Source: Escherichia coli O157:H7
GTDB lineage: Bacteria > Pseudomonadota > Gammaproteobacteria > Enterobacterales > Enterobacteriaceae
Assembly: GCF_013167455.1 (NCBI RefSeq)
Contig: NZ_CP038328.1
DNA length: 64,000 bases
Direction: 5' to 3' (one strand)
Shown: positions 61,085 to 61,137 of the stretch, in pieces
How positions within the stretch are numbered: the first letter of the stretch is position 1
Layout of the letters: each line of letters opens with the position of its first letter
Translations under genes and position numbers: made by a program
The notes under the pieces: model-generated
Databases searched by the model: none
What the model saw: only the letters and a program-made list of their open reading frames with translations
What the model was told of the DNA's origin: nothing

Positions 61085-61137
61085 ATATACTATAGGGGGG
61101 TATGCATTGACATATAGCATACCCCCCTATAGTATAT
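61085..61137. promoter_or_regulatory. frmRAB operator: long perfect inverted repeat with a G6/C6 core
   Basis: tatactataggggggtatgc - 11-bp spacer - gcatacccccctatagtata, immediately upstream of frmR. Confidence 0.75.

Follow-up and report, generated by a model that had tools for sequence, protein, structure and literature searches.

The closest described system to the element studied here is the promoter of the formaldehyde-detoxification operon frmRAB (Pfrm) of Escherichia coli K-12, whose large inverted repeat has been described as tandem type-I binding sites of FrmR, its repressor (Denby et al. 2016, Sci Rep 6:38879, PMC5146963). In that study, binding was measured by BLItz on PCR fragments from strain MG1655. 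E. coli FrmR (EcFrmR) bound Pfrm with a Kd of ~220 nM, versus ~3600 nM for a control promoter, and formaldehyde abolished the binding to the K-12 fragment (PMC5146963). Transcription of frmRAB in vitro was likewise repressed by FrmR and relieved by formaldehyde (PMC5146963). In Salmonella, two FrmR tetramers bind a 33-bp operator, and binding is abolished by mutating one flanking T/A-rich repeat (Osman et al. 2015, 2016; PMC4528141, PMC5016687). RcnR has been reported to bind with one tetramer per site (Iwig and Chivers 2009, as cited in PMC5146963). A 2024 biosensor study introduced ATAC-N9-GTAT into promoter J23100, both 5' of its −35 and in its spacer, which resulted in FrmR-dependent repression (PMC11127321). 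In the same study, a truncated promoter that retained both FrmR sites lost repression, which hints that upstream DNA also matters (PMC11127321).

Pfrm, its regulator and the sensing of formaldehyde are thus already known, and the promoter is in use in formaldehyde biosensors and in synthetic methylotrophy. A sort-seq analysis of Pfrm by Rohlhill and colleagues in 2017 reportedly identified two 19-bp repressor sites, one 5' of the −35 and the other over the −10, an arrangement that would agree with the one described below. In the literature examined, we found no base-resolution footprint of EcFrmR and no mapped transcription start of E. coli frmR. The assignment of exact bases to the E. coli sites rests on inspection, modelling, transplanted sites and conservation.

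We compared this system with an inverted repeat in E. coli O157:H7, found in a stretch of 64,000 nucleotides (64 kb, referred to as the window; coordinates are those of the window unless stated otherwise). The repeat spans 61085–61137 and consists of a left arm, ATATACTATAGGGGGGTATGC (61085–61105), and a right arm, GCATACCCCCCTATAGTATAT (61117–61137). The arms are 21 nt each, show 100% complementarity and are separated by an 11-nt spacer, ATTGACATATA (61106–61116, + strand), which is the sole asymmetric part of the dyad. An inverted-repeat search ranked this element first in the window, where the runners-up had arms of 15–24 nt with 75–87% complementarity. When the window was shuffled 100 times, the longest perfect arm was 10–16 nt (inner ends at most ~120 nt apart), and the analytic expectation for an arm of at least 21 nt in the window is 1.8e-6. 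Folded as single-stranded DNA, the repeat reaches −21.5 kcal/mol, versus −6.0 ± 2.2 kcal/mol for shuffled sequences (z = −7.1). The inverted repeat is real and lies well past chance. The initial annotation, made from the sequence alone, had described it as the most conspicuous dyad of the window with arms of 20–21 bp and a gap of 11 bp, and this agrees with our search. It had also called the element a perfect palindrome with a G6/C6 core. The arms are indeed perfect, but the element is an interrupted inverted repeat instead of a palindrome, and the G6 and C6 runs lie within the arms, away from the dyad centre.

The motif ATAC-N9-GTAT occurs twice in the 64-kb window, once in each arm. The distal site, ATAC-TATAGGGGG-GTAT (61087–61103), lies immediately 5' of the −35, and the proximal site, ATAC-CCCCCTATA-GTAT (61119–61135), covers the entire −10 along with most of the spacer of the promoter. 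Both were assigned by motif match, the distal one also by the site definition of Denby et al. (2016), and neither has an assigned strand. Each contains a G6 or C6 tract, so that both arms carry the type-I operator sequence as defined in PMC5146963. The two sites are 32 bp apart from centre to centre, which is about three helical turns.

A promoter scan of 60800–61500 returned a single sigma-70-like match on the + strand, TTGACA-17 nt-TAGTAT, with a score of 10/12. Its −35 hexamer, TTGACA (61107–61112, 6/6), lies in the asymmetric spacer, 3 bp past the distal site, and its −10 hexamer, TAGTAT (61130–61135, 4/6), lies in the right arm within the operator half-site TATAGTAT. By consensus match, the FrmR sites thus overlap the core promoter, with the predicted −35 between the sites and the predicted −10 in the proximal site. 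The same TTGACA/TAGTAT prediction was obtained in K-12. The suggestion that the repeat is an anchor for promoter mapping is borne out by the position of this sole match. Transcription is predicted to start at ~61140–61143, which would leave a leader of roughly 20 nt with GAGG at 61152–61155. With the dyad centre at 61111, this predicted start fits the description by Denby et al. of a repeat 'centered at -29'. A divergent promoter that uses the mirrored TATAGTAT of the left arm was also considered and rejected: no −35 was seen by eye, and the scan of the minus strand was empty.

Downstream of the repeat, the window contains frmR, frmA and frmB on the + strand. The frmR gene (61162–61437, 91 aa) begins 25 bp past the repeat and encodes a CsoR/RcnR-family repressor (PF02583/DUF156, E = 3e-23). 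It is followed by frmA (61472–62581), an S-(hydroxymethyl)glutathione dehydrogenase with zinc alcohol dehydrogenase domains, and by frmB/fghA (62674–63507), an S-formylglutathione hydrolase of the esterase type. FrmR of the window (WP_001141271.1) is identical to the K-12 protein, matches the crystallised K-12 FrmR (PDB 5LBM) over residues 1–91 and contains Pro2, Cys35 and His60, as read directly from the translation. The region 60900–61300 is 100% identical to O157:H7 chromosomes. A GTG at 61141, which would give an FrmR of 98 aa, was rejected as the start codon, as RefSeq and PDB 5LBM both have the 91-aa protein that starts with the ATG at 61162, and as its N-terminal Pro2 is the sensing residue (PMC5146963). 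Mechanically called ORFs that cross the repeat (61080–61229 on the + strand, 61083–61274 and 61090–61392 on the minus strand) were discarded as well, as they run out of frame over frmR and have no RefSeq annotation.

Taken with the published work, these observations leave us highly confident that the repeat serves as Pfrm, the operator-promoter from which the formaldehyde-detoxification operon frmRAB is transcribed. The initial annotation had proposed an FrmR operator, and this proposal is supported by the PF02583 gene downstream, by the identity of its product to K-12 FrmR and by the match of the element to published Pfrm. The comparison that it recommended, with the published frmRAB promoter, leads to the same inverted repeat, described there as tandem type-I sites (PMC5146963). 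The outcome that it named as refutation, failure of FrmR to bind, is contradicted by the published experiment on the K-12 promoter fragment, which FrmR bound and from which formaldehyde released it (PMC5146963). In the proposed mechanism, each arm provides one 17-bp CsoR/RcnR type-I site, which in E. coli would be occupied by one FrmR tetramer. With both sites occupied, RNA polymerase would be kept off the promoter, as 3 bp separate the distal site from the −35 and the proximal site contains the −10. Formaldehyde cross-links Pro2 of FrmR to Cys35, upon which FrmR is released from its operator and the operon is transcribed, frmR along with the rest.

To place the two sites in a comparative footprint, we used 80 loci with FrmR homologues of 52–100% identity from gamma-, beta- and alphaproteobacteria. 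ATAC-N9-GTAT was found within 160 nt 5' of the gene in 65 of the 80 loci, which shows that the motif is conserved upstream of orthologous regulators. There were 83 matches in 12.8 kb of upstream sequence versus three in the remaining 243 kb of the same loci, a ~450-fold enrichment. Among 58 distinct frmR upstream sequences, the proximal site has the consensus ATACTCCCCTATAGTATAT, which is nearly equal to the right arm in E. coli, and its orientation is constant, with the C-tract first and TATAGTAT second. This constant asymmetry would be explained if the proximal site were fixed by a second job as the −10.

The second site has a narrower distribution. A mirrored distal site at 32–35 bp from centre to centre occurs in Escherichia, Pantoea, Edwardsiella, Providencia, Aeromonas, Serratia and Morganella, and TTGAC is retained 3 nt past the distal site in most of the other two-site genera. 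The inverted second site is thus found mainly in Enterobacterales and Aeromonas, whereas the proximal site extends to all three classes; alpha- and betaproteobacteria mostly have a single site. The range of 32–35 bp argues against strict helical phasing. Other layouts occur too. Both sites are direct and 33 bp apart in Erwinia endophytica (L016:1400–1500), and two sites lie 23 bp apart in Paraburkholderia and Biostraticola (upstream of position 1501 in L040 and L057). These layouts show that a two-site frm promoter needs no mirror symmetry. In Deefgea, a distal site is located 32 bp upstream, with a centre that is no clear mirror of the proximal site. In five Tatumella loci, the operator is a lone, extended palindrome, ATACTATA-CYCCCA-TATAGTAT, at ~−56 to −34 from the ATG. 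This operator has a TATA element on either side of its C-tract, and the literature words the Salmonella operator similarly.

As the proximal site matches a consensus that is conserved over three proteobacterial classes, we infer that it is the older of the two. The distal site is its mirror copy, which explains the long perfect symmetry, and the left arm probably arose by inverted duplication. Perfect symmetry itself is dispensable: the K-12 arms are 19 nt, the Erwinia sites are direct, and arm-to-arm identity among genera ranges from 13 to 17 of 17, with 13–16 of 17 in several of them. The hairpin-capable repeat is a by-product of a mirrored site across the −35, and is no conserved structure in itself. 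Concerted evolution of the arms was considered but not established: symmetry is perfect both in Escherichia (GGGGGG/CCCCCC) and in a widely shared variant (GTGGAG/CTCCAC), but the replacement of G6/C6 by the latter amounts to about one paired change, and the arms of other genera differ at 1–4 of 17 positions. This replacement, with perfect arms, is found in a group of near-identical frmR promoters from unrelated genera, i.e., an Edwardsiella anguillarum plasmid, an Enterobacter sp. and Morganella. A second group of loci with near-identical promoters comprises a Citrobacter MAG, Klebsiella grimontii and Maribrevibacterium. Near-identical promoters in unrelated genera, one of them plasmid-borne, suggest that frm cassettes may have spread horizontally, and such loci are non-independent data points.

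The strongest of the alternatives is that the repeat acts mainly as a nucleic-acid structure, either as a cruciform or as a hairpin in RNA that reads through from fbpC or yaiO, where it could serve as a terminator, an insulator or an RNA-stability element. Such a role would be in line with the 21-bp perfect stem (z = −7), with the location of the repeat 83 bp past the fbpC stop codon and with a symmetry that exceeds the 17-bp FrmR motif, running 2 bp past ATAC/GTAT on either end of each arm where the 17-bp site model alone needs none. However, the element accompanies frmR and not the upstream gene, most frmR homologues have a single site and are therefore hairpin-less, the direct sites of Erwinia cannot pair, and the arms in several genera are imperfect, as described above. 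An intrinsic terminator was rejected, as the stem has AT-rich ends and an 11-nt loop and is followed by TGCGTGC instead of a T-run, and the terminator scan made no call. An Rfam scan of 60900–61500 returned microRNA-precursor models at 20–27 bits versus gathering thresholds of 68–100, which are generic hairpin matches far below threshold. We therefore consider a mainly structural role extremely unlikely, and retain the operator-promoter of frmRAB as the function of the repeat.

In E. coli, 3554 of 5134 matching genomes contain the 53-mer of the window unchanged, with its perfect 21-nt arms. K-12 MG1655 has a C to A change at the equivalent of 61118 (L081:1549), which leaves ATAC and GTAT untouched. 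With both sites intact and FrmR identical, the results published for the K-12 allele should also hold for the O157-type allele. Rare alleles that break the symmetry, each uncompensated in the other arm, have C7 for C6, CCTCCC in the right arm or TATACAGGGG in the left arm (GG to CA); they occur in E. coli strains S6aCHROMc, TUM12357 and 06-00048. Nearly all E. coli genomes have the element once (median 1, two places at most), and it stands upstream of frmR in every annotated locus inspected, whatever gene is found further 5'. Several copies at varied loci, as expected of a dispersed repeat or the end of a mobile element, were not observed in these genomes.

In the window, Pfrm adjoins fbpC, an ABC transporter ATPase gene that ends at 61002. 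The fbpC–frmR junction is found in only 450 of 5415 genomes, and the others align by megablast from 61070 on. Weaker similarity extends to ~61059 in a multiple alignment. The upstream flank at 61059–61084 (no assigned strand), which ends in the block TTATTCTCC..TGTT, is conserved in Escherichia and contains the junction with variable upstream DNA. The block itself (61070–61084) is kept in E. coli, E. albertii, E. whittamii and other Escherichia, and the DNA further 5' is unrelated. As a promoter truncated 5' of the FrmR sites reportedly lost repression (PMC11127321), this flank may contribute, for example through DNA wrapping of the kind proposed for RcnR. The initial annotation had the repeat mark the start of conserved frm sequence at its boundary with the afu island; the boundary is indeed near, but homology begins 15–26 bp 5' of the repeat. 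The DNA 5' of Pfrm varies within E. coli, with fbp/afu-type ABC genes in the window (~55800–61002) and yaiO, a gene with an LbetaH domain and IS2 in K-12 (L081:1–1405). A second hairpin is located at 61015–61044, just 3' of the fbpC stop codon, and consists of AACGGTCCC, a 12-nt loop and GGGACCGTT, without a T-run. The fbp/afu transcript may end here, and the hairpin lies in a region that K-12-type genomes lack.

The same boundary bears on a second alternative, in which the repeat is the scar or target of a rearrangement (a terminal inverted repeat, an attachment site or a hotspot) that marks the fbp/afu junction. The break in homology to genomes without fbp/afu is close by, and the DNA 5' of Pfrm is variable among Escherichia. 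Yet this breakpoint lies outside the repeat, and the repeat is present in ~5,390 genomes both with and without fbp/afu, at a median of one copy. Moreover, the same architecture occurs in other genera beside unrelated upstream genes. We give this explanation next to no credence.

One E. coli genome departs from the normal arrangement of Pfrm. In strain FJ_Ec_21 (L083:3001–3053; NZ_CP143627.1, 3528785–3528837), TCTATATGTCAATGC stands in place of the 15-nt K-12-type spacer GCATTGACATATAGA and is its exact reverse complement, equivalent to a flip of 61104–61118, whereas the arms, the flanks and frmRAB are normal. As the arms are symmetric, the promoter geometry is recreated in reverse: TTGACA-17-TAGTAT faces away from frmR and is antisense to yaiO, and a 9/12 match is left towards frmR. 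Such a reversal of Pfrm would be possible in one step because the arms are mirror images and the −35 lies only in the spacer. Among ~5,390 complete E. coli genomes, a 101-bp query with the flipped spacer gave one full-length match at 100%, to FJ_Ec_21 itself. In metagenome contigs, we found no exact match to the flipped junction, versus 95 to the normal one. The flip is most simply explained as a palindrome-mediated inversion that happened once or as an error of the assembly, rather than as a programmed switch. It could also be that template-switching or recombination between the arms reverses the spacer and thereby turns Pfrm, in which case FJ_Ec_21 would carry a natural mutational off-switch of frmRAB, heritable and reversible, together with an outward, FrmR-flanked promoter antisense to yaiO, but we consider this very unlikely. 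We likewise do not favour a miniature invertible promoter, whose −35 spacer would flip to switch transcription between frmRAB and the opposite direction: the exactly reversed spacer, turned promoter match and normal flanks of FJ_Ec_21 speak for it, but it is barely credible with a single case that could be an assembly error, no recurrence of both orientations in the genomes or contigs searched, no recombinase gene nearby and a 15-bp segment that is too short for site-specific inversion.

Beyond published Pfrm, our additions are incremental and consist of the comparative footprint, the allele survey and the flip variant. We also provide exact coordinates in the window for both FrmR sites, the −35 and the −10. 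The footprint shows a site overlapping the −10 that is conserved in three classes, and a mirrored second site that appears to be a later addition in narrower lineages. This contrast in conservation is useful for the design of minimal FrmR-controlled promoters.

Compared with known systems, the element is most like K-12 Pfrm, which is the same element at the same locus, with two ATAC-N9-GTAT sites and a dyad ~29 bp 5' of the predicted start (PMC5146963). The two differ at the equivalent of 61118, where K-12 has A and the window has C, so that K-12 has 19-nt arms and a 15-nt spacer instead of 21 and 11 nt, and in the 5' neighbour, which is yaiO in K-12 and fbpC in the window. The frmRA operator of Salmonella Typhimurium resembles it in having a C6 tract between T/A-rich inverted repeats and in binding that is weakened by formaldehyde. 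Our sequence comparison with Salmonella is based on the frmRAPro* probe, a mutated version, which has ACCCCCCTATAGTATAT in common with the right arm of the window. What has been described in Salmonella is one C6 site in a 33-bp probe, whereas Pfrm has two sites around a −35. The rcnR–rcnA operator of E. coli and Salmonella has tandem type-I sites, TACT-G6-N-AGTA, and their TACT-N7-AGTA geometry equals that of the frm consensus, aTACT-CCCCnnn-AGTAt. However, its repressor is a Ni/Co-sensing paralogue, the two TACT..AGTA sites of the Salmonella rcnRAPro probe are ~20 bp apart within 35 bp, and, unlike the arms of Pfrm, the rcnR–rcnA sites do not surround a −35 as a long repeat that could fold into a hairpin.
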